DNA from: an uncultured Nitrospiraceae bacterium
GTDB taxonomy: Bacteria > Nitrospirota > Nitrospiria > Nitrospirales > Nitrospiraceae
NCBI GenBank assembly: GCA_963846575.1
Contig: CAWJWJ010000002.1
Span: 928,001 to 992,000 of the forward strand
DNA: 64,000 nt
Direction: 5' to 3'
The position numbers and the translations under genes were made by a program. Under the pieces are notes generated by a model. The model ran no database searches. It worked only from the letters and a program-made list of their open reading frames with translations, and had not been told where the DNA came from. Below, piece after piece: positions 30,796 through 61,399 of this stretch. Numbering within the stretch: the first letter of the stretch is position 1; every line of letters starts with the position of its first letter.

Positions 30796-30842
30796 TGGTG
30801 GCGGTGACCCGGATTGAACGGGTGACCCGCGGCTTATGAGTC
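30796..30842 (-). tRNA. 3' fragment (nt 30-76) of tRNA-Met(CAT); island att end
   Basis: Minus strand GACTCATAAGCCGCGGGTCACCCGTTCAATCCGGGTCACCGCCACCA: anticodon, T-arm and CCA; no 5' half upstream. Confidence 0.92.
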
Positions 30843-31046
30843 GCCTCCGAACCGTGACAGAAACCGTGACAGCTAAGAAGGCTGAAAGTCGGGTTCCAGT
30901 GATCCAATCCCGGGGCTATGTCATGCATGGTACTGGTGAGCTTCTGCAAGCGTACCAGCGAAGAGGCTGACGCGGTAAGACGAGGCTTATGAATTAAACT
31001 CATTCACTACTTCGGCTGTGCCAGGAAACATGTATAGCCAGTCGAG

Positions 31047-32707
31047 TTTTAACCGCCCTCGTGCGACGGCGGATCACCCCACACATTGCGGCCAAGACGA
31101 CGGGACGGGAGGCCATCCATCAGCGGGTGCGTCGGCTGAGTCGGACGGTGGGCTATCGCCTCTCGCAACGGGCGCGGAAGAAGATCGAAGAACTCTGAGG
31201 CGAGGCGAAATGCTGGCACGGCTTCCGGCGGTTTCAGCGACGGGGGCTGCTCCAGGCGTAAGCTCCCCTTAGATTGAGACAGCCATAAGGAGAACATTCT
31301 GGCACAATCGTCACCCTAGCCAGGAGGTTCCCATGCGCCAGTCGAAGTTCACCGAAACACAAATCGTGTCGATCCTGAAAGAAGCCGATGCCGGGCGCCC
31401 GGTCAATGAGTTGTGGCGGCAGCACGGCATCAGTTCCGCGACGTACTACAAGTGGAAATCCAAGTACGGCGGGCTGGAAGCCTCGGATGTGAAGCGACTG
31501 AAGGAATTGGAACACGAAAACAACCGCCTCAAGCGGATGTATGCCGATCTCTCGCTCGAGAATGCGGCGCTGAAAGATGTCATCGCAAAAAAGCTCTGAA
31601 GCCCGCTGAACGTCGGGAGGTTGTCACGCATCTCGTGACCGTACACGGTCTCCCGGTTCAGCGGGCTTGTCGCGCAGTGGGTTTGGGACGGGCGACGTAC
31701 TACCGACCACTCATCGACTGGGCTCGGCGGGATGCGCCGGTCATCGAGGCGTTGACGACGCTCGTCGCGGCGAAGAGTCGCTGGGGCTTTTGGAAGTGTT
31801 TCGGCGACTCCGATTGGATGGACATCCGTGGAATCACAAGCGTCTCTGGCGGGTGTACTGCCAGCTCCGCTTGAATCTCCCCCGTCGGACGAAGAAGCGG
31901 CTCTCAGCTCGTCTGCGACAGCCGTTGGGCGTGATTCCGTACCCGAACGCCGTGTGGGCCGTGGACTTCATGAGTGACACTCTGTACGGCGGCCGACGAT
32001 TCCGGACGCTGAACCTGCTGGATGAAGGCGTGCGGGAAGGCTTGGCGATTGAGATCGATACGTCGCTCCCGGCTGAACGCGTGATTCGCGTGCTGGAGCA
32101 AGTCGTGAGCTGGCGGGGCCAGCCGCAAGCGATTCGGCTCGATAATGGCCCAGAATTCCTCGCCGACCGGTTCATCACCTGGTGTGCGGAACGGGCGATT
32201 CAGCTGTGGCACATCCAACCGGGCAAGCCGGATCAGAATGCCTTGATTGAGCGGTATAACCGAACCTATCGGACCGAAGTGCTCAATGCCTATGTGTTCG
32301 AGTCGTTGGATCAGGTGCGAGAGATCAGTGCCGAATGGTTGCAGAGTTACAATGAAGAGCGGCCCCATGACGCGTTGGCGGGCCTGCCGCCCGCCACGTA
32401 TCGGGCCCAAGTGGAAGCCAGAAATTCTCCCATGAAACTGTCTCCTTGACGGGGGAGCTTACGCAGGTCCGAGATGAGGCCTATCTAATGGGCTGGTTAC
32501 TGAATCTGAAGCGACTGGCGAACCTGCTCCCGGCCCCGGCCTAGCGGGGGCACACCGGGCGCCTGGGGGCGTGCAGGAGCGGCGGGAGAGAGCAGGTGAT
32601 GGACGGCTCACCTTCCATGACGGACAGACCAATCGCCCAACAGAGACCTGAGTGAGTACAGCCGTGACAGCGAAACCGTTTCAAAAGGCTAGTTTGTCAA
32701 CAGCCTG
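31047..32707 (+). pseudogene. Truncated IS5-family element (3' end plus IR), interrupted by IS3
   Basis: Homologous to the 3' end of the 45110-46486 element; IR GTTTGTCAACAGCCTG 32692-32707; in-frame TGA. Confidence 0.85.
31257..32463 (+). mobile_element. IS3-family (IS407-like) element, copy 1; orfB has a 1-nt frameshift near 31800
   Basis: IRs CGTAAGCTCCCC; 4-bp TSD CAGG; orfA 31333-31599; A6G slippery site; DDE orfB to 32449. Confidence 0.95.
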
Positions 32708-33020
32708 CTAGCGTATCGGCACCTAGTTCGTGCCGAGCGATAATCACTCCGCTATTTTCTAGAGTGGAGACAACACTCGAGATCGGGCCGTCCCCAAGGT
32801 TGTAGAAGCAGCGCGTTTCCATTGCGAGCTCTTCGATCCGGTCGAAGGATAGGAGCAGAGGATCACCAGGAACATCAAGCTGAGGTAGGCGCGGAACAGG
32901 AAATTGTACGTGACCACGAAGATACGAGACAATCTCACGAAAGCCAGGCATAGCGTTGTTCGGCACGCCTGCGAGCGGATTTTGTTGCGGCCTTCATCGA
33001 CCGATAGAAGCTACGATACT
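32708..33020 (-). pseudogene. Internal fragment of an XRE-ImmA/IrrE metallopeptidase gene
   Basis: FYRSMKAATKSARRRAE...IEELA..TR....LGDGPISSVV..LEN.GV, cut by the IS5 end. Confidence 0.7.
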
Positions 33021-33057
33021 CTGTTCTCTTTCTGGCTCGCACGGCTTAATGCCATGC

Positions 33058-34896
33058 TCACAACGGCTCTTCTCTTCCTTGGTACACTATAACCTCCTCA
33101 TAGTCAGGAGCTTTGACTTGAATGCTGGAACAGGCCCAGTACCCTTCTGGTTCGCAAGGTTCAATGTCAGGTTCACAGCAGCCAGGTCGAGGGGGATCAC
33201 TGCATGGCCGTCGACACGGTGGAGGACAGCGTCGCGTAATGACAAACCGGCAGCTGGCAGTAAAGCTAAATGGCACACCCACTGGTGCAACCTCTCGGAA
33301 ATTACCTCGAGGCGGCCGAATATAGACCTTAGCACTTGGGACTGAAGTGCCCGTTCCTGCATCCTCAGCGTATACCGTAACTTGCCCAGAACCTTCTATG
33401 TTTGATGGATTCGTCGAAACCCGCAATTTCCTCAATATAATCGGCATACCAATCGCCGTGTCGTTATAGCTAGACGCCACTACGGTTACCTTATTCCCTT
33501 CATGAAAGGAATAGGTGATAGCGGTGTTCGTCTCTCCTATGACTTGTCCGTCGACTTTTACCTGACCACGGATCGCATTTCCACTATGCCAATCGTGAGC
33601 GCTCACTATGAAAGAAACAGGCTCTCCGACTGGGATTCGCTGAACATTCAAGGAAAGCCGTAATTGGGGCGGCCCTAGTCTCCAAAACACTCGGTAGATG
33701 GCCTTGAAGTCAGCATCCTTTCTTACGAAGATGCCCCTTTCTCCTCGAATGAAGACATATACATTGACATGGTCCTGGTGTTTCGTAATTCGCGCACCAT
33801 TTCTGGCCGAATTACCATCAACTATGAGATCCGTGGTGGTTTCTCCTCCCACTGCTTCTACGCATTCCAATGTCGCGAGGGGATCGGGACGGCTAGATGG
33901 AGGGTGAATATCAAGATTCAAAATCCGCTCCTGAGCCGTTGTCGGGCCTGCTTTCGCCACCATTGCGACACAGCGAACGGTTTCCTCCCGCGCTTTAGGT
34001 GGGAGTGCATGAACATGATCTGGGGGGTGAATTTCCGTCCAGCGAGCCGGATTGTAGGGATGCTCCTTGGGATTTGTTCCCCATTTTAATATCCGATCCC
34101 CCCAGGCTTGAAGAGCGCTTCCATCAGCCCAGTGGGGATCATCCGTCACTAATGCTCCTATCACGCAGAGATAATCCCCCCCCTGCAATCGCCTGCTCGG
34201 GTCATTGGACGCGTATCTCGGATCCCAGGGCCAGACAAAATTACGTCCGTCTGCACAGCCGGACAATTCTGGTGGATGAGCTGTCCAACCAGCATCTTCA
34301 GGAATCGCACGATTATCCTCACACTTACCGCAACGCTGTCCCGGCCGCCATGACTTTATTTCAACATGGATGAGTGGTGGAGACACTGCAACGTAGTCAT
34401 TCCCACTGGTATTGTGCTGAACGATGCTGCCGACACGCATCAAGCCTCCGAGGTCTATTCCCTTTGCGTCTGTGAATCGAGGATCGATTTCAAATCCAAA
34501 GGTTGCGTCAGGGGGATCTTCATGACAGCCCGGTGATGAACCAATCTCCTTTTCCAACCAACCATGGAGTTCAATAATCCGTGCACCACGGGCATTTGGC
34601 CACGTACCGCCGATGGCAAGGCGATGATCACGGTTAGGCCAGCTCAGTTGGCTATGGATATCCCAGTAGATCATCGAGGGATCAGTGCCCGCATAGCCTC
34701 GCGTGCCACCACACCCTACGTCTTGGGCATAGTGTCTATTGGGATCCGCCCGCCAGTAAGAATCTGGCACGCCAGTATGGGACAGATTAGGAATGGGCAG
34801 CGCCGCTGACGCTCGCTTATAGAACGGTGCGGGGAGTAGCGAGACCATTCCAACCGCAAGGCTAAGCTTCAAAAACTTTCTTCTGCTGATAGCCAT
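33058..34896 (-). CDS. Tat-exported hypothetical protein with EIHP motif, Ig-like repeats and Cys/Pro-rich tail
   Basis: SRRKFLK twin-arginine signal; 612-aa open frame. Confidence 0.85.
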   Translation of the reverse strand: MAISRRKFLKLSLAVGMVSLLPAPFYKRASAALPIPNLSHTGVPDSYWRADPNRHYAQDVGCGGTRGYAGTDPSMIYWDIHSQLSWPNRDHRLAIGGTWPNARGARIIELHGWLEKEIGSSPGCHEDPPDATFGFEIDPRFTDAKGIDLGGLMRVGSIVQHNTSGNDYVAVSPPLIHVEIKSWRPGQRCGKCEDNRAIPEDAGWTAHPPELSGCADGRNFVWPWDPRYASNDPSRRLQGGDYLCVIGALVTDDPHWADGSALQAWGDRILKWGTNPKEHPYNPARWTEIHPPDHVHALPPKAREETVRCVAMVAKAGPTTAQERILNLDIHPPSSRPDPLATLECVEAVGGETTTDLIVDGNSARNGARITKHQDHVNVYVFIRGERGIFVRKDADFKAIYRVFWRLGPPQLRLSLNVQRIPVGEPVSFIVSAHDWHSGNAIRGQVKVDGQVIGETNTAITYSFHEGNKVTVVASSYNDTAIGMPIILRKLRVSTNPSNIEGSGQVTVYAEDAGTGTSVPSAKVYIRPPRGNFREVAPVGVPFSFTASCRFVITRRCPPPCRRPCSDPPRPGCCEPDIEPCEPEGYWACSSIQVKAPDYEEVIVYQGREEPL

Positions 34897-34953
34897 GAGT
34901 TACCCGTGCGACTTTTCCAAATTCTTAAGTGCAAAAACATTCCCGTCTCGACG

Positions 34954-35721
34954 TCACTCTTTCTTAGGTCCACCGACTCTAGGTGATCCGCCCGCCTTTG
35001 CATCTTGACCAGTAGATTTCCAGAGAAGGTTGTAGATTTCCTTCTGGTGCTGGAGATAGCGAAAAACGATGTTTTGAATTACCTGGGGTACGTCTGCCAA
35101 CGGCGAGTTGGGAGGTTCGGTCATTATTGGTGGCGAAGATGGGCCGGAAACCGGGGGCGGGGAAGGGGAAGAAGGTTGGGTAGGCTGAGGGATTGTAGGT
35201 GAAAGCGCAGGCTGTACCGCCGTTGTGGTGACTCCAAAACCTGTGTTCACTGGCTGAACCTGAAGTTTAGTTAGCTCGTCTATTGCGAAAACCGTCACCA
35301 CAAAGTCGTCAAACATAACAATGATATCTAGATAGAGGTCCTTATCAATTGCTCCGTTAAGGTAGGCCTCGCAGGCTCGGTACAAACTATCTCTGAGGAG
35401 TTGAATGGTTGATGTCCTTGTCCCGAGCTTTGCCACCGCCTCCGCTGAACGTGCATCCATTTCGACTAAGCTCTTTTCTCCGACGGGAACCTTTAGTAGC
35501 CCGGAAGCAGCCATACTTACAATGGCATCGGGGCTTGGTTCAGCACACACTATCCGCTCATTATGATTTGTCCCGCCCTTTAGGGTCGACAACATGATCC
35601 GCTGTCTCGCGTCCATGCTGAGACTGATCGGCTCGTCCACATTAAATGTCTTGAAGATGGTCGAACTACAGCCTGTACAAGTCACTATCAAACACAGCAT
35701 GACCAACTTATTCGTATTCAT
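34954..35721 (-). CDS. Hypothetical lipoprotein (CAEPSPDA...LLRD.LYRACEAY type)
   Basis: Lipobox CTGC; Pro-rich linker; GAGG RBS. Confidence 0.8.
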   Translation of the reverse strand: MNTNKLVMLCLIVTCTGCSSTIFKTFNVDEPISLSMDARQRIMLSTLKGGTNHNERIVCAEPSPDAIVSMAASGLLKVPVGEKSLVEMDARSAEAVAKLGTRTSTIQLLRDSLYRACEAYLNGAIDKDLYLDIIVMFDDFVVTVFAIDELTKLQVQPVNTGFGVTTTAVQPALSPTIPQPTQPSSPSPPPVSGPSSPPIMTEPPNSPLADVPQVIQNIVFRYLQHQKEIYNLLWKSTGQDAKAGGSPRVGGPKKE

Positions 35722-35834
35722 AAGTACCTCGCAAGTGTTCTATGGGCGCATGCCCGGTCTTTCTGGCAGCGGCCGGGGCAAAATCAACTCCGCTGTACTA
35801 TTCAAACGGCAAACACCAATGGCAAGCAATGGCA

Positions 35835-35850
35835 AGCAACAAGTATTCCA
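35835..35850 (-). promoter_or_regulatory. Putative sigma54 promoter
   Basis: Minus strand TGGAATACTTGTTGCT (GG-N10-GC). Confidence 0.55.
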
Positions 35851-36852
35851 TGTCCCCCAAAGACAAATTGCATTAGCATACTGCGACCGCGATGGAACGC
35901 AGTACAGGACCTTGGTATTTACAAAAATCACAGCCAAACCCTTGTGGGTGAACACGGAAAAGGCTTCTTAACGTCGGCTGGGCCAGCCTGTTGAACTGCC
36001 GTGGCCGCAGTTCTAATCCCCTAGCATTCCCCGCGAATGGCCACTTTTAGATACCAGCAAAGTATCGAAACCGATACCGTCAGTATCTTTTGAGATATAG
36101 GCCAGGGACGTCAGAAGCAATCATCCGCGTTTCGATGAGAATCACTTAGTCGCTTTGCCTGTACCGAACAAGCTAATGGAAGTCTCTCCCAAAATCCAAC
36201 GCTATGTCCATAAAGCTATCCTAGCCCGCCAGAAGGCTGCGCGCCTTTTTTGGCGGGATGCGAAAGCAACAGTCGAAAAAACAATAAGGCTTTTGGCCTA
36301 AGAGGAGTTCTTACACCTCGGTGCCAAAGAGCTACCCGCGCTCTGTCCTTCCCTATCAAATGAATGGAGCCGGCAAGGATGAGGCCTTGTCGAAGGGGCG
36401 GACTACAGGTTGCCACACCACGAACAGCACTAGCAGGTGTCCGGCCAATGCCTGACACGTCACCAGGCGACATATGAAGTGAGAGGAAGAACTAATATCC
36501 GAAGGTGGAACGATGGAATAGCATGTCAATATAGGGACAAGCGTCTCTGCATATCGATGCGTAGCGGCACGTCGTGATCCTGACATGCAGCGGTGCGCTC
36601 TCTCAGCGATCGTCGCGCAACAATATAGCTCTGGGATACCCTTCCATTAAGCGAGCCAAGCATTATCCAGGAGTTGTATCTTTTTCGATAATCCCGTGTC
36701 GGAAAGGATACGGCGCCCTTCTGAACCTATGCGACGGAAGCCCGTAGATACCGTTTTTTACAAAATCTGCGTAATGATCATCGCAGCTCGCAGCAAGGCT
36801 AAATGCGGAATGGTCTATTGAAGCTGCGAGCAAAATCTTTCAAGCAGAGATA

Positions 36853-36868
36853 TGGAATAGATATTGCT
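36853..36868 (+). promoter_or_regulatory. Putative sigma54 promoter
   Basis: TGGAATAGATATTGCT (GG-N10-GC). Confidence 0.55.
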
Positions 36869-36981
36869 GAATGAATACGTACGTAATAAGCGAAGACTTC
36901 AATGCCACTAAGATTGGCTGAGTTTTTTTTAAAAGGCTTACCACCACTTTTCTTCTAAATGATTCCGCAGAAAGGAACGTT

Positions 36982-38968
36982 ATGAGAATGAACCGTTACT
37001 TGGGAGGCATGAGTATTTTAGGTTTGGCGAGTGTACTGTTGACCGGATGCCTGGTTGCTATGGCTCAGGATGATCGAGGAGAGACAAAGCGTGTCGCGGC
37101 GGTACAACCAGAAGCGACGGCAAAGAAAATAAGTGCTCCATTGGTCCGTGATGCTGCTAAGCCGAAAACGTCGACCACGAAAGATACCCGTGCGTTAATG
37201 GACGCGGCGCCAATGAAGATGTGGAAAGAAGGAGATCCCGTCCGGGTTAAGGACGATATAAGGGGTCTTGATAGTGCCGATGCAGTGCGATACCGGCCGC
37301 AAAAGCAGGTAGACCCGGTCTTGAGCCCCGGGACTTAGCTCAAGAGCGGACATGAATGCCGCCCCAACGATTGTCGCCAACTTTGATGGAATTCAAGCCA
37401 CGGGCGTTTTACCTCCAGATACAGTCGGAGCAGTAGGACCCAATCATTACATTCAAATGGTAAACTCAGCCTTCTCCATCTACAACAAAACTGGGACCCT
37501 GCTCGCCGGACCGTCTCAGATTAATTCCTTGTGGAACGGGTTTGGTGGGCCATGCGAAACGGACAATGACGGGGATCCGGTAGTGCGGTATGACCACTTG
37601 GCAGATCGTTGGCTCGTGAGTCAATTTGCCATCGATAAGAGTATGCAGTGCGTTGCTATTTCTCGAGGCGCTGACCCAGTCACGAGCGGTTGGTTCTTGT
37701 ACGCCTTTCCAACGCAGGATGCAAACGGACAGCCCGTGACTCCAGATTATCCCAAAATTGGCGTATGGCCCGATGGATACTATATGGCAACGCAGCGAGG
37801 ATTTCCGAATAATGGCCTTGATGTGTGGGTCTTTGAGCGAGATCGTATGCTAGCTGGACAGCCAGCCAGACAGGTGCAGTTTGCCGTGGCCGCCCCATCT
37901 CTGTTCCTGCAACCTAGCGATTTGAATGGTCCGCCTCCGCCGGCTGGGACGCCCAATTTCTTCATTCGGCAGGTGGATGGACAACGCTTCAACGGGCAAG
38001 ATCGAATTGAGGTGTACGCCTTCACTGTGAACTGGGCTAATCCAGCCACGTCCACATTTCAGTTAACCAACAGTTTGCCGACTGCCGCCTTTGATTCCGT
38101 CCTGTGCAATTCTACCCTGCTAGGCGCATGCGTACCACAGCCTGGTACATCGCAGCGCCTAGAGACGCTGAGTGTGTGGCCGATGTTCCGCGCACAATAT
38201 CGTAATTTCGGGGCCCATGAAGTGTTGCTCTTAAACCATACAGTAGATGCGACCGGACAGGATCGAGCCGGAATTCGATGGTATGAGCTCCGGCGGACGC
38301 CTGGCGGTACGTGGTCGATTTTTCAACAGCAGACCCATTCACCAGATGCGACAGATCGCTGGATGGGCAGTATGGCTATGGACGCAAAGGGCAACTTAGC
38401 CTTGGGGTACAGCGCCTCGAGCTCAACGACATCCCCGAGTATACGGGTTGCCACAAGGGCCGCTACAGACGGGGCCGGTCAATTCGGCCCAGAAATCACT
38501 TTAATGAATGGCGGTGGATCGCAAACGCATTCGTCAGCACGGTGGGGAGATTACAGTTCAATGGACGTGGACCCCGTTCAGCCCTGCACCTTTTGGTTTA
38601 CGACGCTTTACTATGCTTCTACATCTCAAGCAGCGTGGAGGACGCGAATCTCGGAAGTTCGGATCCCCGAGTGCAGCGGCAGTACGCCAACATCTGCTCT
38701 TCTCGCCTTTGGCGTTGTCTTTAGCGATGGGACCAAGCAATCAGGAACACCGAATTGGACATCAGTATTTAACAGCGCCGAAAAGCGGTATGAACTCACA
38801 ATAAATGGTGAAAATTACCACTATCTAAGGTACAGCACACTGATCACACCAGCCGGTGATATGCGTTACTGTCACTCCTCTAGCATCGGAGGCAAGTTGC
38901 TGATCTATTGCCATGACAAGAATGGCATTCCAACCACAGCGCGGTTTGCCTTTATCACTTATAAATAG
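36982..38968 (+). pseudogene. Secreted beta-rich protein, apparently one gene split by a frameshift near 37324 (ORFs 36982-37338 and 37352-38968)
   Basis: Signal peptide only in the first ORF; second ORF frame is open from 37325; PPDTVGAVGPNHYIQMVN, DYPK, RWGDYS motifs. Confidence 0.7.
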
Positions 38969-39011
38969 AAATCGCTCGAGGCCAGTACTCATATAGGGGG
39001 GAGTGGGAGTT

Positions 39012-39482
39012 ATGAACAATATTATCCGAGCTAGTTTGTGTGTACTCATATTGGTGCACTGTCAGGCGCTGGCCCAGCAGGATCAGGATGATTCAAGCCA
39101 AGTGTTGGATGACGCCGGTGGCATTGCTTGGATGCTGGCAACCGGACACGAACTGACTGATAGCGAGGAGGGAGCTTATGCCGGTGCACTTACTGCGCCA
39201 ACTGCTATCCCATTGGCGTATGGGGTGGTGTACAACGACGGCTCAAAACAGTCGGGATCCACAAACTGGACTTCAGCCTACAACGCTACAAGCCATCGCT
39301 ATGAGATCACAATTGGCGGAGAGAATTACCACTATTCCAGTTATGCCACCATTGTTACGCCAGCAGGAGACGTCCGGTACTGTCGAACAGATAGTGTAAG
39401 CGGAAAGCTTCTTGTCTATTGCGTAGACAAGATAGGGTCTCCCGCTCCCTCACGGTTTTCGTTTGCAGTATACAAACCTTAG
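39012..39482 (+). CDS. Secreted protein consisting of a copy of the preceding gene's C-terminal domain
   Basis: Signal peptide; ungapped alignment to the last 88 aa of the 37352 ORF. Confidence 0.85.
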   Translation: MNNIIRASLCVLILVHCQALAQQDQDDSSQVLDDAGGIAWMLATGHELTDSEEGAYAGALTAPTAIPLAYGVVYNDGSKQSGSTNWTSAYNATSHRYEITIGGENYHYSSYATIVTPAGDVRYCRTDSVSGKLLVYCVDKIGSPAPSRFSFAVYKP

Positions 39483-39571
39483 ATTATGCGCACGTGGCCT
39501 CAGTAAGTTGGCTCCTTCAAGACCCAAAATGCTGCTTTTCGCCACATTGATCATCACGAGGTAGATCCGAC

Positions 39572-41017
39572 ATGCGAATAGTCCGAGCGCCCCTCAAGGT
39601 TCTAAGCCTTGTCGTATGTGCGGTCCTGTCGTTATCTGATACCGCGCTGCCAGTGGTCGGACAAGCAGTGAAGAAATTCACATGGCTACTGGACAACGTC
39701 GAGGTTCAAGGTGTCGTGCGATGGATCGATCCAATTCAGGACGGGACGGAACCGGACATCTTTCGGATTAGAGCCAGACCCGAACTACAGCATCTCATTT
39801 CGCTCTTGCCAGGAAATAACCCCATGATGTTTCAGCCAGTGGGATCAGTTGGAGTTCTCCAGTGTGAGACATATCCGCTTACGCCATTGGACATTAACCG
39901 CTCTGACTCATGGAGCCTTCCGAGGAAACCGAACCAGCCTTTCGAAGTTATTATTGATCCAGTGACGCATCAAAAGCGCCCCCTGCAAGTCGGGGACCAT
40001 ATACGCGTAGTCGGTCGGTTGGTGATAGATCACCATCCCGAGTGGTGTGATATGCCCAGCAAGTTCACGCCTCCAGAGCCATCACGATGCCGCCATCGTG
40101 GATGGCTCAAAGTCGGCCCAGCTCATATGGAACTGCATCCTATCCGCTGGGACGACATTCAGCTAGTGTACGAGGCCCGGTACCATGAGGCAGTCAGCGA
40201 AACGCTTTCGCTCGCCGCGCGCCTCTACGTGGAGAGGGTGTACCGGGGTGGCGGAAAACACATCGCAAACGAGATCGCTGGCGTAGCGAGCAAGATCTTC
40301 ATTCATGAATCCGCCTATAACTATCACGAGCGTGCGACGGCAATCATCCGGCTTAAGGCACCTCCGATCCCTGGATTCTCGCCGCGAGCTGACCTCGTGG
40401 GGTTTGAGAGAGTTTGTACTTCGCAATGGGACTGGAAGGAACCTCTCTGAACTGCGAACGATTCGGACATTGGACGACGGCCTACAAGTCACGGCGTCAA
40501 TAGACGCTCCAAAAACGATCGAACAGGATGGCCTGAGGTTGGAGACGTCGACGATCCATCTAAAGGAAAGTCAATCCTTCAAGTAAATTATCAGGTGTAT
40601 TGGCAGCGGCGCTTGCAAGCTGTCGATAAAAATGGGCATGCGTATGATGTCGACAATCCTTTTCACCAAGATCGTATCAACCTTGGTATGGTCCCTCGTC
40701 AATCCTCCTTTCAGGTGTATCTAAAGAACCGTGGACCTGATGTGCTTACGATCTCAGAAGTCAGCATGGGGCCATCGATAGGAAATCCACGATTCAGAAC
40801 CTTCGCCATTGAAAATGCTTCTGGATTAAAAGTTCCCGCTGGTAGGACCGTACAGCTTGGCGGCACATTCCGGTCGCTCTTTGGCGGTACGTATAGCTCT
40901 AAACTGATCGTTGTCAGTAACGATCCATCGTATCCTCGATTAGAGATAGAGATTATAGCGAGCACCCAAGGACCGGGTAGGCCTACAAATCCTTTCGAGC
41001 CGCTGGTGCCTCAGTAG
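39572..41017 (+). pseudogene. Secreted ELHP-motif protein with C-terminal Ig-like (ASH/choice-of-anchor-D-like) domain; two frameshifts near 40405 and 40540
   Basis: Three overlapping frames read as one protein colinear with the 33058 gene; N.G...L.I...SNDP tail. Confidence 0.65.
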
Positions 41018-49767: not shown

Positions 49768-49808
49768 GCTGTGTCCTTTCATGGAAAGCCCGCTTTTGTC
49801 ACAACACA

Positions 49809-49824
49809 CGCAACAAGCACACCA
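49809..49824 (-). promoter_or_regulatory. Putative sigma54 promoter of the amylase gene
   Basis: Minus strand TGGTGTGCTTGTTGCG (GG-N10-GC), about 40 nt before the ATG. Confidence 0.5.
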
Positions 49825-50012
49825 GATCCTAAGCGCATGAAGGCTATGAAATACTTTCGAGCTTAATCTTTCGATACAACAAAGTGAGGGTATTCCGAAA
49901 TCCAATTGGCCGCGTATCCATTTGGATACTCCTTGCATCTGAAAGGATACAGAAAAACCTACCTAGTCCTATCCCGCTAACTTTTGAGCAATGAAAATAA
50001 TACTTATGTGGT

Positions 50013-50028
50013 TGGAATAGTACATGCA
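50013..50028 (+). promoter_or_regulatory. Putative sigma54 promoter
   Basis: TGGAATAGTACATGCA (GG-N10-GC), 33 nt before ATG 50061. Confidence 0.5.
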
Positions 50029-50060
50029 TTACGAATGTGCGCGTGACAATTTAAGTGAGG

Positions 50061-51077
50061 ATGAAGATGGTCAGAAAAGTCCTCCTTTGTCTTGTAACAG
50101 CAGTGCTGATCCTTAGCCGAAACGCCGAGGCTACCCTAAGTGTTGAGGTGCAGAGAATATGGCAGGAAGCGACCCTAGTAGAGAACGAGCACAAGAAATT
50201 GATTGTTGAGAAGAAGAAGTTGGCTGAATTGATGGCTGCGCTCAAAGATAAAACCTTCAAGGAGGAAGACCGCAAGAAATTAGAAACCCAACAAGCACTG
50301 GTTGATGCTCAGAATCGCAATCTTGAAGCAGTAATAGACGCTACCTCACTGAAGGGGCCGACAGAGACTGCAATTATAAACGCCATATCAATAGTAAATA
50401 AGAAATCAAAGTTGGACGAGCTGGGTACACAAATGTTGACGCATCCGAAAGAAACACAGGCTGTGTTAGCTAAAACCATAGAAGGCATGGAAGCAGACTT
50501 AACTACATCAGCCGTGAATGCGACAAAGCTGAATGAACGCGAACGAATAGATAAAGAGGCCGACACACGCTTCGCGGGATTTGGTTTCGGCGTAGCCATT
50601 GGCCTTACAGTAAAGGCAGGAAATAGGGACCTCGTGCAATCTGCCACGCTGGATGCCAACAAAATAGTCCGAGTCGAGCGTGACAACAACTCAAGAGCCA
50701 ATTTTCTATTGGAAACCCATTATCTCTTTACACCGAATGCTCCCTTTCTTCCATGGATTCCATTTTTCAATGTAGAGGCTAAACAGTGGGGGCATGGGCC
50801 CTTCGTCGCGGTGCAGCCAGGCACAGACAATATTATTGAATCGGTAGGAATAGGATGGATGCTCGGATTTAAACGTTCTCGCATCCTTGCGACAGATACA
50901 GCCCGTCAACGAGGGGATAGCTTCAATCTCGGAGCGGGGGTACTGGTCAATCCTAACGCTCAAGTTCTTGGCGATGGCGTGGTAAAGAACCAGCCGCTAC
51001 CCAGCAATGAGACAGATGTACGTTTGAAAAAGACGACTGAAATTGGTTGGCTTGTCGTCTTCTCCTATTCTTTTTGA
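50061..51077 (+). CDS. Secreted protein: coiled coil plus small C-terminal beta-barrel-like domain
   Basis: Signal peptide (AEA), heptads, terminal VVFSYSF. Confidence 0.8.
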   Translation: MKMVRKVLLCLVTAVLILSRNAEATLSVEVQRIWQEATLVENEHKKLIVEKKKLAELMAALKDKTFKEEDRKKLETQQALVDAQNRNLEAVIDATSLKGPTETAIINAISIVNKKSKLDELGTQMLTHPKETQAVLAKTIEGMEADLTTSAVNATKLNERERIDKEADTRFAGFGFGVAIGLTVKAGNRDLVQSATLDANKIVRVERDNNSRANFLLETHYLFTPNAPFLPWIPFFNVEAKQWGHGPFVAVQPGTDNIIESVGIGWMLGFKRSRILATDTARQRGDSFNLGAGVLVNPNAQVLGDGVVKNQPLPSNETDVRLKKTTEIGWLVVFSYSF

Positions 51078-51277
51078 AGCTAGGTTATTGGGAATGGTGC
51101 CACATGACTGAAGCGCCAAAGTTGGCTTTCATGTGCGCTTACTGCGCGCGTGCCGTTTAAAAAAGCAGGAGTTAAGCACTCGTATCAAGGAGTGATGAGC
51201 GAACGAAAATGCGTAAGTTAATAGGCCGCGTACCGCCGGTACAGAATTTGTATTGAACAGCGTGGATCATCGACTGC

Positions 51278-53072
51278 ATGGAGGGTGGTATGATCGCACC
51301 GACTTCTACTACCATAACCAAGTTGCTGCTGGTTTTGTCGTTGCTATCCACCGGTGGTTGTTTAATATGGGATCGCCCTCATCAACTAAACTCATTCCGT
51401 AGTTACATCGGTACAAATAAAGAACACCTCGACCTCTCACCGGTATGTGCTTCGAACGCCAGGCCCAAACACTTTGTGCTCCTTCATGGCATTTATGGGG
51501 ATGGTAAGACCTTTGGAAGGCTTCCCGAATTGTTAACTACACAGTCAAATTACGCGTGCGCGAAGTCTGTCCACATCATGGACTACTGGAGTAGCAGGTT
51601 CTTTCCTAACTTTCAGAGACTGGAAGATTTGGGTAACGCCTTTGAATCAAACCTACGGGAGATAGCTAACAGAGGTTCGGATGAGGACATTTTTATCATA
51701 GCGCACAGTCAAGGAGGATTGATCGCAAGACATGCGATTGCAGCGCTCGCCTCGGATCCTGCTGCGAAAGATATTGTGAATAGGATCACTCTCATAATGA
51801 TTGGAACACCCAATCTTCCATCTGCTTATGCCACCCTGAATAACGCTTTTGTGAATTCGGTACTGTTTCCCGCAACCTATGGCTTTGCCTTGCTTCAAAC
51901 ATTTGTTAAACCGGTAGTAAAAGAGCAGCACGCCCTGATCTACAACAGACAAGCTTTCGATATGGCGGACAATGGACTATTTTCGGGTAGGCAATGTCGC
52001 CCTTCATGGAATCATTGACGTTGAAATGGACTGAGTTGTTCTATTTGTTGAATGGCACCTCTCCTAAGCCAAAAGTTTACTCTATTTTGGCGTGTACGAT
52101 CTTTTTAATGCTTTAGCATTAAGCGATGGAGTAGTGCACTCGACAAGTTCACTGTATGCTGGAGTGCCACGAGAGAACACTTACCATGTGCCGTACAGAC
52201 ACTTCGGCCAAGAAGCTTATGTCACAGGGGTCTCGCACTATACCTTTCAAGCCCTCGAATGTATTTTTTCGGGAGGAGGGATAAACCCACGAATGTGTCC
52301 GCCAAATGCGTCTGGCGAAAGACCTCTGTTCTCAGGAGACCTATCACCATTTCGAGATCTATCCATTGCGTTTGTAACCTTTGTGGAAGAAGTTCCTGGT
52401 CCATCGTCTAAAACTCACAAAGGTCCCGATGGTCTCACGCAATTAGAAGAGCGTCCTTCTGATCCGGTTGTGTTACGCAATTTTGAGATAGACGATGGTG
52501 CATTTGCTCCAATGCATCTCGGCAAGCAAATGAGAGCAGCGATGGCGGTGGAATCCCGTCCATTTGAGGGGGGAATTGTGAATGGACTCTGGAATGCTTT
52601 TGAGCCCTGGCTGCTAATAGCGCCTTCTGTACTTCACAGTTTCGGTGATGTGGCGGTTCAGAGTCTAGAGCGGCGAGGATCAAACACTCCCAAATTGAGG
52701 CTCCTGGGACAGCCCCACCTGTTATATGCCGGTGAGCGAGCCGGCGAGATCGAATTCACACTTAATGTTGGAACGGCGGGTTGGTTGGGTTTGGGCCAAG
52801 AGACGAAAAGCAGCAAAATAAAGTTTTATGTCAACGATGATTCCAGCTTTTCCCATGCTGGATGCGAAGTTAAATATAGGTTGATATGGAGTTCTAAAGA
52901 AGCAATCGAACCGCTAAATTCTAATCAATATGCAATTGCTTTGGTTGAGAACGCCCCGAACTTTATCAAAATTGACATTAATGACGAGGAGATAGTGTTA
53001 AGGAATCTCGCCTGCAATAAAGGACATGGTATGATTGCTGGCGACGGCTTGCCCCTGTCGCAGAATCGTTAA
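51278..53072 (+). pseudogene. Alpha/beta-hydrolase lipoprotein, frameshifted near 51990 and 52090
   Basis: Lipobox TGGC, LLHGI, AHSQGG, GTPN, later SDGVV and H; a bridging frame is readable between the two ORFs. Confidence 0.7.
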
Positions 53073-53974: not shown

Positions 53975-54784
53975 ATGTCTGATCCAGCCTGGGATATCAA
54001 TCGGCAACCTCGTGGATCACCGTTCAAAGCCCCGCCGCTGCGGTTGCCAGGACAGTCAGTGGATGAACGTATAAGCATCCTTCACGCCAGAATTGATGAT
54101 CTCTTGGTAATCCCGTTGTGCTTCGTCGTGGTCGCCGGATATGGCTGGATTCAGTGGTGGACAGGGCGTCCGTTACACCCACTGATTCTCACCGCCGTGG
54201 CAATCATCGCCGTAGCATGTGCATGGATAAAACTACGGCCCATTAGGCGGGCCGTGAAGAAGCTTAAGCTCGGTCGAGACGGTGAACGGATCGTGGGACA
54301 GATGCTCGAACAGTTACGAGGAAATGGATACCGCGTGTTTCACGACATTCCTGGGCCATCGTTCAATATCGACCATGTCATAGTGGGGCCAGCGGGTATC
54401 TTTTCCATCGAGACGAAAGCGCGAACTAAGCCAATACGTGGTCGGGGGAAGATTATCTACGATGGCGATACAGTTCAGATAGAAGGGAAAGGGGCAGTGG
54501 ATGCACCGTTGAATCAAGTGCGGGCACAAGCGCACTGGCTGGCTGCTCTACTCAATGACGGTCATGTCTCGAAGCACAGAGTTCGACCGGTGCTAGTGTT
54601 TCCTGAGTGGTACATTGAGTGGACCGGTCCACGTCTGGGCAGGAATGACGTGTGGGTGCTCAATCCGAAGGCGCTCGCCAGGTTCCTCGAACACGAGCCG
54701 CACATTCTCTCGCCCGCGATAGTTGAAATGGTGGCGCACATCCTTTCGCTATACTGCCGCCAGTCCATGAGAGAGTCGGCTTGA
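53975..54784 (+). CDS. Membrane-anchored NERD (PD-(D/E)xK nuclease-like) protein
   Basis: Two TM helices, G.DGE, NIDHVIVGPAGIFSIETK. Confidence 0.9.
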   Translation: MSDPAWDINRQPRGSPFKAPPLRLPGQSVDERISILHARIDDLLVIPLCFVVVAGYGWIQWWTGRPLHPLILTAVAIIAVACAWIKLRPIRRAVKKLKLGRDGERIVGQMLEQLRGNGYRVFHDIPGPSFNIDHVIVGPAGIFSIETKARTKPIRGRGKIIYDGDTVQIEGKGAVDAPLNQVRAQAHWLAALLNDGHVSKHRVRPVLVFPEWYIEWTGPRLGRNDVWVLNPKALARFLEHEPHILSPAIVEMVAHILSLYCRQSMRESA

Positions 54785-55691: not shown

Positions 55692-56487
55692 CCCGGATGG
55701 TATGGCCCGATCAGTATGATCCCAATGAGGGAGTCCGTGACGCGGCGGGCGATAGAACTACGATAGGGAAGCGAGTTTACGAGTATAAGAAGCGGGCTAA
55801 TGACTGGATTAAGCTCTACGGGAAGCTCATAAAGGACGAAAATGAGCGTTCCCTGCAGCAATAAAACAACGACTTTTTTTGTACCCTGGCGGCTTCCTCT
55901 AAGCCGTTTTATCTTCTTGAGAGCCGAGGCTGGCGTTGATGCTGGTCTCGGCTTTTCTGTTTCTGGGCTAGTAACTCGAAGGGAGGGATAAGTTGTCGGA
56001 TCAAGAAAAACAAGGTTTCCCCGGTACCGTATGCCCACAGTGTGGGTACTAGGGGGAACCTCTAGAGGCACTCTATTTCCTAGACGTGGCCGCTGCACTT
56101 ATCCCCATGACCTACGACAGCCTGAGGAAGTTCCTGTCTAGGCACCGGGCCGAGTTTCCTGCCCGATACGGCAGATGGCAAGACGAGACGACGACAACGG
56201 CTCCTGACAGGTGCGGAGATTAGGCGCATCAGGGAGCGTCTGGTAGAGCCCCCAAGACGGACACCCTGGACGATGTGTTCCGACGAGGCATTGTCTCCGC
56301 GGAAGAGAACGTTGATGAAACGAAAGGGAATTCTGATTGATGGAGTCGGGGAGTGTGACCTTAACCTGTGACTAGGAGGTGTGCAATGGACGAAAGTTAG
56401 ACTGATCGACGACGCAATAGAGCGTAGAGGGGAACATCGGGTGTGCCTGGTTGAACCCGGGCGAAGCCCATAACACAAGTAAACGAC

Positions 56488-57531
56488 GTGAAAGGAGCAG
56501 CATGCAGAACAGTAAACGATTCACTTTCTATTCACCCTATAAGGCAGGTACCCGTGACGAAAGCGAAATTTAATCCGATGACGGCGTCAGAGTTGATTGA
56601 CATGGATATGGAGGAGGAAATCGAGTGGGTTTGGGAAGACTATTTCCCGGCTGGGGGGCTGGTGATCTTGGCCGCCAAGCCAAAGGTAGGCAAGAGCACA
56701 CTGGCCTATCAGTTAATCGTGAAGATCGCAAAAGGAGAGCCGTTTTTGGAGCGTTCAACCAAGCAGGGAGGCGTTCTCATCGTGGCTTTGGAAGAACACC
56801 TTCGGGATGTGAGGCTGAGGCTCAAGGAGTTGGATGGGAGGCTGGATAATATCTTCATCCATTCTGGCAGCTTAGTGCCGAATAGTGACACTCTGCTGGC
56901 GATTGAAATATTTGCGCTAGAGCGCGGGGTGAATCTCATTGTAATCGACACACTCGCCATGTTTTGGCGGCTCCAAGATGAAAGTGATGTGTCGGCTATG
57001 ACGAGGGAGATTAAGCCTTTGTTAGAGCTCGCACGCAATACAGGAGCATGCGTGGTGCTTATTCATCACTTTCGGAAGTCCGAGGGAAGCGGTGGTGATG
57101 AGATCCGTGGTTCCATCGCCTTGATGGGTGCCGTGGACATAGCGTTGGGGTTGTATCCGCAAGGGGGAGGTAATCGGCGAGAATTGAAGAAATTAGGAAG
57201 CCGATACAGCGAAACATCATCTGAATTGACCGTCGAGCTAAAAGACGGTGAGTACGTGGTGGTGGATATTGACCTTCAGAGCTCCGAGGCTGAAGAGAAA
57301 CGTCTGGCGGGCGCGCTGACCTCAGAGCCGCAGGATATTGAGAGCCTGGCAAAGGCAGCGGGTGTGCCGCGAAGTAGGGTCTACAAGCAGATGAAGCGCC
57401 TGGTGGACCAGGGGCTGGCTCAACTCCACGGGGAGGGCGTTAAAGGCAGCCCTCATACCTACACAGCAGTCGTGCCAGATTCTCTTTCTGTTCCACCATC
57501 CTTCCTTAGAGAAAGAAGAGAGAGAGCATAG
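56488..57531 (+). CDS. RecA-family AAA_25 (RepA-like helicase) with C-terminal HTH
   Basis: Walker A AKPKVGKS, LIVIDTL, LIHHFRK, RGS; start probably 56554 or 56578. Confidence 0.88.
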   Translation: MKGAACRTVNDSLSIHPIRQVPVTKAKFNPMTASELIDMDMEEEIEWVWEDYFPAGGLVILAAKPKVGKSTLAYQLIVKIAKGEPFLERSTKQGGVLIVALEEHLRDVRLRLKELDGRLDNIFIHSGSLVPNSDTLLAIEIFALERGVNLIVIDTLAMFWRLQDESDVSAMTREIKPLLELARNTGACVVLIHHFRKSEGSGGDEIRGSIALMGAVDIALGLYPQGGGNRRELKKLGSRYSETSSELTVELKDGEYVVVDIDLQSSEAEEKRLAGALTSEPQDIESLAKAAGVPRSRVYKQMKRLVDQGLAQLHGEGVKGSPHTYTAVVPDSLSVPPSFLRERRERA

Positions 57532-57769
57532 TGTCGAAGCGGTAGTAGCAGGGTAGAGATACCCTCGTGACTCTCGCCTGGGAGCAATTAGTAGTCTCAG
57601 GCGAGCGCGAGGTCCCACATTAACTAAAGGAGATCAAAATTCGTCAGCACGGCAAGCAATATGGGCATCGGGGAGGGCAGGTAGGGAGCGATTACTACGA
57701 CAAGGGGAAAGGCCGTTTGCGGGAGCCGGTTCTTATACGTCGATCAGGGAAGCCGCAAACTGGGCGGGG

Positions 57770-57955
57770 GTGTCGCCTCGGACAATGATGCGGTGGGTAG
57801 ACCAGGGATTGCCTCACTACCAAGCTAGACCAAGAGCAAAGGTGTTGGTACGGCCTGAAGATGTTGACGCCTTTCTTCAAAAGCAGCAGGTGCCACAAAT
57901 GGATCTTGATGCATTGGTCGAGGAGGTCATGCAGGGGCTCACCACCAAAAACTGA
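57770..57955 (+). CDS. Excisionase-like HTH protein; N-terminus likely frameshifted
   Basis: GVSPRTMMRWVDQGLP...VRPEDVDAFL. Confidence 0.75.
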   Translation: MSPRTMMRWVDQGLPHYQARPRAKVLVRPEDVDAFLQKQQVPQMDLDALVEEVMQGLTTKN

Positions 57956-58042
57956 CAGGGAGGGCGGTTCCGTGCGGTGCCGCCCTTCTTTCAAATATTG
58001 CATGGATATGACTGAACGATGCACAGAGCGGGTTCAGGCACA

Positions 58043-58231
58043 TCAGCCCTTTGATTTCGGCAGCACGCCCTTGCGCTCAAGTTCAGTGACATGGCTCTCC
58101 AACAGCTCCTTTAGATACGCAGGAAAGCCTTTTCCTGTCAGCGCGGCAGCAGCCCGGAGCTTTCTTACTGTCTCTGGTGGGATCCCCCTTACCAAGAGCG
58201 CCGGAGCTTCTTGGCGTTTCTGTGTTGTCAT
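58043..58231 (-). CDS. Small ribbon-helix-helix-like regulator
   Basis: LLVRGIPPETVRKLRAAAALTG...YLKELLE; divergent from the integrase. Confidence 0.7.
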   Translation of the reverse strand: MTTQKRQEAPALLVRGIPPETVRKLRAAAALTGKGFPAYLKELLESHVTELERKGVLPKSKG

Positions 58232-58331
58232 TTGCCAGGAAGCTAGCACAGGACGCCCCTGATTGCCACGTGATCTTGCAAAGCTATCTATGATATCATT
58301 GAAATCATATCTTATTAAGGAGGTGAACGTT

Positions 58332-59504
58332 ATGAGTGTCAAACTCCGAGAACGCCCGGGTAAAGGTTGGTTCGTAATGACAGATTGGAAGGGCCAACGG
58401 AAGTCAAACGCGTTTGGGAATAACAAGAAAGGAGCTCAAGAGTTTGCCCTGGAAGCTAGAGGCTCGGCTGAAGCGGGCGGAAGCCAGTGGTGAGCCTATC
58501 TTTCTTTCACAGCCGAATCAAAGCATGCCGACTGTGAAGGAGTATCTAATTGAGTGGTTAGAAACCCATGCGAGGGTTCACTGCAAGCCTTCCACTTATC
58601 GTGGTTATAGGCGAGCCATTGAAAAGCATCTAATCCCCACTTTCGGGGACAGACCATTGCATCTTCTGAAGCGTGAGGAAGTAAAACGATTCATCGCTAT
58701 TCAGATTGGCGAGGGAAAGGCGAGGGGGACCATTCAGAATTATCTCGTTCCGCTAAAGGCTGCTTTTAACCAAGCCAAAGAAGACGGTCTGGTTGTCACG
58801 AATCCAGCGGAACGATTGGGCAAACTCTTACAGCCGTCACATGATCGACGGGAGGAGATGCAGCCACTTACGTCTGGGGAAGTTCACACACTGCTAACAG
58901 TGGCTCAAACGCAATATCCATCTCTGTACCCGATACTACTTTGTGCTGTTCGTACAGGGATGAGGCAGGGTGAGCTGATTGGCCTCCAATGGGGAGATCT
59001 GGATATTCGTGGGCAGTTCATCGATGTTCGCCGCGGTGTTGTTTTAGGAGAAGTCACAACGACAAAAAGTAAGAAAATAAGACGCGTCCATATCAGTCCC
59101 CAACTGCTCGGCGTCCTTCAACGCATAAAAGAGATTCGCCAGTTGGAAGCCATGAGTGAGGATAAAGAGCTGTCCGAATGGATTTTTCTATCGCCTGAGG
59201 GACTACGCTGGGATGATCGAAATCTTAGGCGCGGGTTTTATCGTTGCCTAGACAAGGCAGGGATCAGGAAAGTTCGGTTCCATGATCTGAGGCATACCTA
59301 TGCGTCCTTAATGGCCGAAGCCGGTGCCCCGCCTAAGTTTGTTCAGCAGCAACTTGGGCATTCCTCTCTTTCCAGGTCACGATGGATATCTATTCGCATC
59401 TTTTCCCAGATGGAAACCGAGATTGGGTCGCCAAGCTAGATGTTCCAGTAACAGACACTCCCCTGATGGGGCGAATCCGCAACCCAGCCGCAACCGCAAC
59501 CTGA
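58332..59504 (+). pseudogene. Tyrosine integrase with two frameshifts (near 58450 and 59371)
   Basis: GGAGG RBS; TGMRQGE, HDLRHTYAS, LGHSS; catalytic TMDIYSH lies in a shifted frame. Confidence 0.9.
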
Positions 59505-59525
59505 ACCAATCGAATTGGCGCAACC
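59478..59525 (+). repeat. Four CGCAACC direct repeats, candidate integrase arm sites
   Basis: Copies at 59478, 59489, 59495, 59519, next to the att core. Confidence 0.6.
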
Positions 59526-59537
59526 TAACTAGCTGGA

Positions 59538-59573
59538 ATGAGTCCGCTGCTCTACCAACTGAGCTACACCGCC
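59538..59573 (-). tRNA. 5' half (nt 1-36) of tRNA-Met(CAT); 3' half not restored
   Basis: Minus strand GGCGGTGTAGCTCAGTTGGTAGAGCAGCGGACTCAT, then non-tRNA sequence; acceptor strand pairs with the 30796 fragment. Confidence 0.92.
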
Positions 59574-61386: not shown

Positions 61387-61399
61387 CCGGGGATACTTC

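Follow-up and report, generated by a model that had tools for sequence, protein, structure and literature searches.

A tRNA-Met gene in two pieces around a composite integrase island of a Nitrospiraceae genome, probably a local assembly error

The window, a stretch of 64,000 nt from the genome of an uncultured Nitrospiraceae bacterium (GCA_963846575.1, contig CAWJWJ010000002.1), holds an elongator tRNA-Met gene in two pieces on the minus strand, separated by an island of 28.7 kb (Table 1). We could confirm the layout described in an earlier, sequence-only reading: nt 1–36 stand under the native promoter, nt 30–76 lie at the far end of the island, and the 7-mer GACTCAT is common to both. The 5' half is not followed by a replacement 3' half (the next bases are TCCAGCTAG), and the two halves joined in silico give a 76-nt tRNA-Met(cat) cloverleaf, identical to the intact gene of genus relatives. 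A sequence resembling the promoter TAGACA-18-TATTAT is also found upstream of intact tRNA-Met genes in relatives, and no promoter was found upstream of the 3' half. ARAGORN calls zero tRNAs across the window. According to blastn each half is single-copy in the 4.2-Mb genome, which has only one tRNA-Met 5' half.

The GC content of the island is 52% vs 59% in both flanks. Its excisionase-like gene has a homologue in the matching position in locus L288, and the two IS3 copies are 99.7% identical, with one 1-nt indel.

Table 1. Features of the split tRNA-Met gene and of the island, from the promoter to the far end.
Feature	Position	Strand	Evidence
Native sigma70-type promoter of the tRNA-Met gene, TAGACA-18-TATTAT	59618–59647	−	1 site vs 0.0 expected in shuffles
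tRNA-Met (elongator) nt 1–36, anticodon last	59538–59573	−	Sequence, blastn, comparison with relatives
Spacer motif TTCCAGC..GTTA, directly next to the anticodon; the 45-nt loss lies between 59538 and 59537	59526–59538	−	
Four GGTTGCG arm-type-like repeats, element family A, left island end	59478–59525	−	
Tyrosine integrase, family A, convergent on the tRNA	58332–59504	+	PF00589, 6e-30 at 58414–59439
Excisionase-like small protein	57689–57955	+	TIGR01764, E 1e-5, 25.8 bits, below the 28.8 cut-off
AAA_25/RepA-like helicase and HTH, typical of small integrative elements	56488–57531	+	
NERD-domain protein, cargo	53975–54784	+	
Low-GC cargo: alpha-amylase-like, alpha/beta hydrolase and unknown proteins	48418–53072		
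IS5/IS1182-like transposase and IS3-family element (copy 2)	45166–47969	−	
Cargo: large unknown proteins, TonB-dependent receptor, GDSL lipase-like	33058–44878		
IS3-family copy 1 (31257–32464) within a decayed IS5-like element copy	31055–32711	+	
GTCACGGTT pair, arm-type-like, different element family B; 9 nt from CTCATAA	30850–30870	−	
tRNA-Met 3' part with CCA end; true identity from nt 32 at 30840	30796–30842	−	
Lone GTCACGGTT repeat, 45 nt past the CCA end; an older family-B element's left end, its integrase gone	30743–30751	−	

In relatives the displaced 3' fragment starts at nt 32, with CTCATAA, and the "GA" of GACTCAT aligns with their island-end sequence. The shared 7-mer is thus not an integrase overlap: 5 of its nt come from the real crossover region and the other 2 match by chance. 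The gene does break directly after anticodon nt 36, but this is not a natural boundary: of 178 distinct occurrences of the 5'-half motif in all loci collected, 176 continue with AA, and the two others are the window and a match by chance within a gene. All 120 matches of a separate 5'-half search also continue with AA, whereas the window has CTCAT and then TC, and scanning metagenomes for a 5' half with a non-A base next gave 0 matches. The break cuts the CTCATAA crossover, which every natural fragment retains. The displaced fragment itself (30840–30796) lies downstream in the same orientation and starts at the anticodon loop.

The promoter-proximal end of the island belongs to element family A. 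Four members of this family (L002, L185, L257 and L260) contain an intact restored tRNA and have the GGTTGCG motif 87 nt past the anticodon. A family-A arm-like repeat is present 82–97 nt past the anticodon in all 30 other CAT-tRNA loci of this family (87–88 nt in 28, 82 and 97 nt in the remaining two), against 42 nt in the window. The spacer motif, which we take to be IHF-site-like, starts 44 nt past the anticodon in relatives, just behind the CCA end. What is missing at the left end is 45 nt, i.e., the restored 3' half and 5 nt more. Alignment with G024 showed a single clean 45-column gap, and pairwise alignment gave a gap of 45–46 nt against L002 and L185. The alignments with L257 and L260 have gaps of 83 and 75 that are not clean, their spacers having diverged though the arm spacing is 87. 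By ARAGORN, alignment and arm spacing alike, a restored full tRNA is absent from the left end of the window. No other 5'-half-only case was found among 239 loci with the arm motif, 126 of which could not be classed as they have neither tRNA motif upstream.

The family-A integrase is 64% identical to an intact integrase adjoining an intact tRNA-Met in G051, but has two frame breaks (+1 near 58450 and +2 near 59365), and the genome has no second copy of it at E 1e-40. The genome has 15 PF00589 matches, several of them partial or with stops; as integrase decay is common here, sequence errors are not needed to explain the two frame breaks. An explanation of both breaks as methylation-motif errors in or beside CCWGG was dropped; CCWGG is not depleted.

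At the far end the arm repeats directly precede the tRNA 3' part, and no 5' half is found there. The ends are mismatched, with GGTTGCG on the left vs GTCACGGTT on the right, which suggests that the island is a composite. The GGTTGCG pair expected 95 nt before the crossover at a family-A right end, as in G281, is absent from the window, and blastn found no internal 3' fragment separating the family-A part from the family-B part, whereas the true tandem array of G281 has one per junction. A scan for the right-end arm pair gave three matches, the one in G053 without an adjacent tRNA. Three relatives carry 132, 137, and 140 nt more than the window between the arm repeats and CTCATAA. MAFFT failed to place this gap; it was placed by pairwise alignment with cheap long gaps. 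With this second loss, each of the two junctions at which the duplicated tRNA segment lies is short. Since the spacing from arm to crossover is fixed within an integrase family (87–88 nt on the restored side, about 95–150 nt on the other), missing junction bases can be recognised without reads.

The Nitrospira genome (completeness 99.93%, two contigs, C1 and C2) has 47 intron-less ARAGORN calls and 45 matches to Rfam RF00005, with every other amino acid covered; more than 1000 mostly spurious calls from relaxed ARAGORN (-ps85) were excluded from this count. Two intact CAT genes are present: an initiator (C1:950047) with 1:72 unpaired, and one of Ile2 type (C2:217133) with G3-C70, C4-G69, and C5-G68. 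The split gene carries C3-G70, a mark of elongator tRNA-Met according to the available part of Silva et al. (2006; PMC1635315). A second elongator tRNA-Met was not found in the assembly by whole-genome ARAGORN, Rfam, blastn, or a custom scan for an extra CAT anticodon arm plus T-arm, in which only the initiator and Ile2 genes were tRNA-like among 15 matches.

An intact elongator tRNA-Met gene should be essential here, given that Met accounts for 2.1% of internal codons (1048 long ORFs), that the initiator has an unpaired 1:72, that tilS is intact (498-aa frame) and that, in the available part of PMC6265465, wild-type tRNA-fMet of Escherichia coli is unable to replace elongator tRNA-Met. The same part of that source reports that E. 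coli could not lose metT/metU despite a supplied wild-type initiator, apparently with the Ile2 gene still present.

The assembly is otherwise accurate. Across 365 kb of sequence from 290 conserved genes we found five candidate frame changes, one of which is a clear single-base insertion and the others not, and two gaps of at least 7 aa, compared with four in relatives (260 genes), i.e., no excess. The other tRNA islands of the genome look normal, with repeat pairs 45–57 nt behind four of the six tRNAs checked and 129–143 nt before five 3' fragments. The contig ends are rougher. Near its end C1 overlaps the first part of C2 by 319 nt, within a conserved gene, and then runs on for 36 nt that occur nowhere else; the last 400 nt or so of C2 have 68–72% GC. 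One true gap remains, from the end of C2 to the start of C1, inside a tRNA-Lys(TTT) island (full gene C1:6469–6544, 3' fragment C2:2877586–2877630). In three soil DNA runs from one study (shares 0.05–0.10), contigs on 56000–62000 match the host-flank parts mostly at 99% or more; none of them lies over 56000–59416 and none bridges the junction, though at a depth of 2–5 this carries no weight.

Judged from its sequence, the island is of an ordinary, already known 3'-restoring tyrosine-integrase type. The locus would be a decayed composite of tRNA-Met-targeting islands, family A at the promoter-proximal end and family B at the far end. Elements of this kind recombine within the anticodon loop, at the 7 nt CTCATAA, and carry a 3' half of their own, which leaves the cell with an intact tRNA-Met under the native promoter. 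The contig lacks the 45 nt that hold the restored half and about 135 nt beside the far-end crossover. These bases were probably lost when long reads were assembled or polished, at a site where island content varies among strains of one population, and the real chromosome would then have an intact tRNA-Met at about 59573–59498. Of the three explanations in the sequence-only reading (an excision switch, a later deletion, an assembly error) the last is the most likely, on circumstantial evidence, and we consider that the split probably reflects a local error in long-read assembly rather than a living DNA switch.

The family-wide arm spacing, the clean 45-column gap and the second loss at the other end argue for an assembly error. 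So do the missing internal 3' fragment, the raw contig ends, the expected essentiality, and the joined tRNA-Met motif in 159 of the 175 other family genomes (completeness at least 95%). The otherwise accurate assembly, the normal junctions of the other tRNA islands and a similar truncation in G012 speak against it; nor do we have a specific mechanism for a polisher to remove precisely these nucleotides. Long-read metagenome assemblers have been described to concatenate subpopulation-specific regions and to leave indels without a supporting read (bioRxiv 10.1101/2025.04.22.649783, part available). Like such errors, the locus has conserved flanks around a variable region, a contig that combines parts of two elements, short junction losses and foreign contig tails, though tRNA att sites are not described in that part of the preprint.

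The proposed later deletion of ~45 bp at an AT microhomology agrees with the size of the loss, and in L002 the matching spacer is preceded by the base pair AT; the premise that another tRNA-Met exists fails, at least within the assembly. A related, rather unlikely reading is that the deletions are real and the copy dead, with a working elongator tRNA-Met in unassembled DNA (the gap, a plasmid, or a prophage) and the locus free to decay. The island is truly decayed (ISs, remnants), one gap is left, and in N. moscoviensis a 5'-replacing element has moved the working tRNA-Met far from its promoter (L139 and L144, 1.3 Mb apart on opposite strands). Against this, the gap sits within the tRNA-Lys(TTT) island, the other contig break overlaps, and a search of G000 for arm motifs of 5'-replacing tRNA-Met families found none.

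More doubtful still is that the only elongator tRNA-Met was truly lost, internal AUG codons being read by unmodified, Met-charged tRNA-Ile2(CAU) or by initiator that escapes formylation. No second copy exists in a nearly complete two-contig genome, and unmodified tRNA-Ile(CAU) acts as an elongator tRNA-Met in the available part of PMC1635315. G012 likewise has no joined copy: its gene is truncated mid-contig after nt 41 and no 3' half was found, but that genome is in 230 contigs. The intact tilS, the ordinary 1:72 mismatch of the initiator and the E. coli result on metT/metU (PMC6265465, in part) all speak against a true loss, which would also need two separate deletions, one per junction. It is similarly improbable that a free-living Nitrospira lives with its only elongator tRNA-Met in two pieces, either reading internal AUG with unmodified tRNA-Ile2(CAU) or rebuilding the gene by 7-nt recombination in some chromosome copies, with G012 as a second independent case.

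The skin element in sigK, the nifD elements and prophage switches are known examples of regulated gene integrity. A switch of this kind, in which the tRNA is rebuilt once the 28.7 kb have been excised through GACTCAT, is highly improbable here. The likeness is a gene in two pieces around an integrase-bearing element, the precise join giving the exact wild-type gene under its own promoter, with an integrase and an excisionase-like gene at the left end. Skin and nifD elements, however, interrupt conditionally needed protein genes and have a functional recombinase and att ends that match; none of this is seen here. Excision is unlikely to rebuild the tRNA because CTCATAA is cut after five of its seven nt at the left end, the ends belong to different families, both ends are short, with the family-A right-end pair gone, and the integrase is frame-broken without a second copy. 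Elsewhere in the family the 3' half is restored, no relative has the layout of the window, and translation of the integrase would itself first require an elongator tRNA. Our literature search found no essential tRNA restored by prophage excision; PMC12424338 names Mageeney et al. (2020) on regulated gene integrity.

The locus shares several traits with the site-A islands of Islander, namely the target tRNA, a convergent tyrosine integrase at the promoter-proximal end, lower GC, tandem accretion and a displaced 3' fragment that begins at the anticodon loop. Unlike these, it has no restored 3' half, and its far end is of another family and also short. Some bacterial tRNA introns sit right after the anticodon, as the break does, and a group I intron is known from the tRNA-Ile of Azoarcus, but RNA-level repair by such an intron after nt 36 or by trans-splicing of the halves is exceedingly improbable: Rfam gave 0 matches at E up to 1 in 20000–64000, the base preceding the 3' exon would be T and not a terminal G, the pairing of trailer and leader at −13.8 kcal/mol does not exceed chance (87% of 1000 random pairs are equally low or lower), and the 3' half has no promoter. 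In the part of the Islander source available, 3760 of 3919 islands have a 3' fragment, with site A used by 2083, and 159 of 3919 a 5' fragment (PMC4383910); one full plus one partial gene is the usual outcome at tRNA islands (PMC9897764, in part).

If the split were real, it would mean either a free-living bacterium without canonical elongator tRNA-Met, in its single-tRNA form unknown according to the available part of PMC6265465, or an essential tRNA under the control of DNA excision, and would surprise specialists. The case is more useful as a caution about island junctions in otherwise accurate assemblies. A literature search for Nitrospira tRNA-Met islands found none, though the Islander/TIGER island tables may list them.

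Elements that replace the 5' half, in reversed orientation, were reportedly described by Zhao and Williams in 2002. Like them, the window has a bare 5' half under the native promoter. They keep the full CTCATAA in the fragment and rebuild the full gene at their far end, whereas the window has a cut loop and lacks a 5' half at the far end. Such 5'-replacing tRNA-Met elements are common in Nitrospiraceae, and one of them carries a hydrogenase cluster.

The two pieces of the tRNA-Met gene described in the sequence-only reading were recovered at the positions it gave. Joined, they fold as it had proposed into a 76-nt tRNA-Met(cat), and the joined sequence is that of the intact gene of relatives. 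ARAGORN called no tRNA in the whole window. Among the 20 loci used for the intact-gene comparison, 16 were identical letter for letter or differed by one D-loop or T-loop change, and the other four were two more distant loci with T-arm differences, one cut by a contig end and the window itself. As the named records bearing a tRNA-Met of this type are mostly Nitrospira, the host is placed as a Nitrospira.

The host assembly (G000; 4.2 Mb, two contigs, 99.93% complete) holds each tRNA-Met half in a single copy. Under the acceptor-stem rules that separate the kinds of CAT tRNA (excerpt of PMC1635315), its two intact CAT tRNAs are one initiator and one of the Ile2 type, and the split gene is the elongator; tilS is intact. 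Neither those listed among the 45 Rfam matches in G000 nor a custom anticodon-arm scan of this genome contained a further elongator copy, so the earlier premise of another tRNA-Met is not borne out in the assembly and elongator tRNA-Met becomes the sole tRNA missing from it. There are 13,157 Met codons inside 1048 long ORFs, and the E. coli elongator tRNA-Met is described as not replaceable by the wild-type initiator (excerpt of PMC6265465). The split gene is single-copy and should be essential.

Beyond the 5′ half lie a tyrosine integrase, then an excisionase-like gene and a helicase, with four GGTTGCG repeats (family A) between the half and the integrase. In G051 an intact integrase, 64% identical to that of the window, adjoins an intact tRNA-Met. 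The repeats also stand behind an intact tRNA in G024, and MAFFT alignment of this locus with the window gave a single 45-column gap starting directly after the anticodon. The GGTTGCG pair lies 87 nt from the anticodon in four relatives versus 42 nt in the window, a difference that matches in size the suspected loss of about 45 bp. Two collection scans yielded at least 239 loci with the motif; among those listed, a full tRNA was found upstream in 85 and a 3′ fragment in 18, the rest having a T-arm downstream (56), neither (71) or too little sequence (9). The spacing was 87–88 nt in 28 of the 30 distinct CAT-tRNA loci listed, 82 in one and 97 in one. Ten of the 240 listed loci examined for a D-arm lacking a T-arm were flagged, the window being one of them as positive control; the other nine were five visibly intact Nitrospira tRNAs overlooked by the T-arm expression and four spurious matches. 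From the spacing and the intact relatives it follows that the GGTTGCG family restores the 3′ half and that the window lacks exactly this restored half plus 5 nt.

The GGTTGCG motif has a broad taxonomic spread, with loci in Acidobacteriota, deltaproteobacteria, Nitrospirota and other groups (L346-L584), and stands behind at least 16 types of tRNA; of the 85 listed loci with a full tRNA, tRNA-Met(CAT) accounts for 40. We use "arm-type site" and "IHF-like" as predicted labels, based on position, spacing and presumed likeness to lambda-type att sites.

Coordinates of features in the window, in the host genome G000 and in the genomes compared (G###, with contigs C## and fetched loci L###)
Feature	Position	Remark
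tRNA-Met nt 1–36	window 59573–59538 (−)	
tRNA-Met nt 30–76	window 30842–30796 (−)	
Tyrosine integrase	window 58332–59504	two frame breaks; adjoins 5′ half side
TraT-family lipoprotein genes	window 4355–5873	two, adjacent
TadA/guanine-deaminase-like gene	window 28290–28766	G011 homologue 3.3 kb behind tRNA-Met
Large island proteins	window 33058–40450	several (612, 538, 292, 255 aa) without Pfam/NCBIfam match
Clean array at tRNA-Met	G281:C1:2215–2252 kb (L280, L281)	3′ fragment at each junction slightly diverged
tRNA-Met 5′ part	G012:C78:27810–27850 (L051)	stops after nt 41
5′-replacing loci	L139, L144, L295, L298, L301, L305, L306, L319, L080, L130, L142, L171, L186	
20.5-kb array unit	G043:C18:17184–37770 (L293, L294); G067:C30 (L296, L297); G287:C1:2037.7–2058.2 kb (L299, L300)	
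Homologue in the host genome	G000 C2:2115–2133 kb	72%
tRNA-Arg(TCT) 5′ fragment, 42 nt	G000 C2:1319431–1319472	own 5′-replacing element
tRNA-Arg(TCT) full gene	G000 C2:1351470–1351546	32 kb from fragment; intact integrase directly before it

Displaced 3′ fragments of relatives begin at CTCATAA, the anticodon loop and crossover of these islands. Of 120 matches to the 5′ half, 107 run on into the T arm, the remainder being 4 truncated at a contig end and 9 fragmentary or decayed copies, and AA follows the half in all 120. The 178 distinct occurrences across all loci include just two without this AA, the window (TC) and one chance match. Bare 5′ fragments with both ends readable belong to 5′-replacing elements, a kind counted in 159 of 3919 islands in an excerpt of Islander (PMC4383910). 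Those elements keep the whole loop and rebuild the full gene at their far end, whereas the window does neither, no rebuilt gene being present there. As all natural fragments keep the whole loop, the break in the window is not an integrase product.

The right island end carries repeats of another family, GTCACGGTT, a motif type also found behind intact tRNA-Met genes in L040, L118 and L150. Family-A right ends, as in the closed genome G281, have GGTTGCG 95 nt ahead of CTCATA; none occurs at the right island end in the window. The repeats there stand 9 nt from CTCATAA, in contrast to 132, 137 and 140 nt more at family-B right ends of three relatives and 143 nt at the corresponding place in the host's own tRNA-Arg(TCG) island. 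The 7-mer GACTCAT is indeed common to both halves, but alignment with L028 assigns its GA to the island end and not to the tRNA. The foreign motif and short spacing together show that the island is composite and that its right junction is also short; its component elements are of known kinds and the composite is decayed. In G281 the tandem array has an integrase of the same family as the window, and each of its junctions is marked by the 3′ fragment; no such fragment was found at the family A/B border of the island. The 612-aa island protein has a twin-arginine-like leader at its start and a Cys/Pro-rich tail.

Among 176 family genomes of at least 95% completeness (including two unpublished genomes, G112 and G116), the 5′ motif was present in 166 and the joined motif, with both parts contiguous, in 159. 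Eight had the former without the latter: G000 itself; G110, G305, G235 and G264, whose contigs stop within the tRNA; G122, with the left end of a 5′-replacing element at 390 nt from where its contig stops; G187, with a different full-length match (86%); and G012, truncated mid-contig in an assembly of 230 contigs. Of these, G012 alone is like the window. Its 5′ part runs straight into an arm pair, about 80 nt closer than usual, and an integrase end, and the 3′ half was not found in its 230 contigs.

Comparison thus establishes two junction losses, an ordinary island family and no second elongator gene in the assembly, and the unrestored split is probably absent from the living chromosome. On balance we favour an assembly error, in which bases at both island junctions would have been dropped in the long-read consensus. 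The expected need for the gene speaks for this, given the number of internal Met codons and the failure of the wild-type initiator to replace the elongator in E. coli. The assembly bears marks of long-read consensus and raw contig ends, and long-read metagenome assemblers are described as joining subpopulation-specific regions and printing read-unsupported indels (excerpt of bioRxiv 10.1101/2025.04.22.649783). Several observations speak against an error: the core genes are almost free of frame changes (5 candidates in 290 genes, one clear; 493 ORFs queried out of 800 kb from two relatives), mid-size gaps are not in excess, the other tRNA islands of G000 have normal junctions, and broken integrases occur frequently in it. 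A real deletion leaving a dead copy, with the working elongator gene unassembled, seems unlikely, as the sole open assembly gap sits within a tRNA-Lys island. Real loss of elongator tRNA-Met with compensation is quite improbable. The proposed switch in which excision rebuilds the tRNA is highly improbable, since the island has neither matching ends nor a complete crossover nor an intact integrase. Intron and trans-splicing readings failed their tests, and with excision failing too, a real deletion or an error remains.

In Nitrospiraceae, tRNA-Met is a frequent site of 5′-replacing elements. They leave the 5′ fragment under the native promoter, and the full gene, at the far end, is preceded by sequence from the element that has a repeat pair of its own (one family has GGTGAACA, others have the GGTGGACA and GGGCACA types). 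In N. moscoviensis (L139 at 2.748 Mb, L144 at 1.446 Mb) the working tRNA-Met is on the opposite strand at a distance of 1.3 Mb. A [NiFe]-hydrogenase cluster is encoded on one 20.5-kb unit of a 5′-replacing tandem array; it comprises genes for the large and small subunits, HypB/D/E/F-like proteins, a maturation protease and a sigma54 activator. Because the unit ends are 99.9–100% identical across genomes of three genera (0.9–2.4 kb compared), recent transfer of the cluster is suggested; shared binning from one habitat may also account for this identity. A 72% homologue is present on C2 of G000.

The end of C1 and the start of C2 in G000 share a 319-nt overlap inside a conserved gene, probably that of ribosomal protein S6. 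The final 36 nt of C1, found nowhere else, resemble a noisy sequencing-adapter tail and may be one, and the last 400 nt of C2 form a stretch of 68–72% GC.
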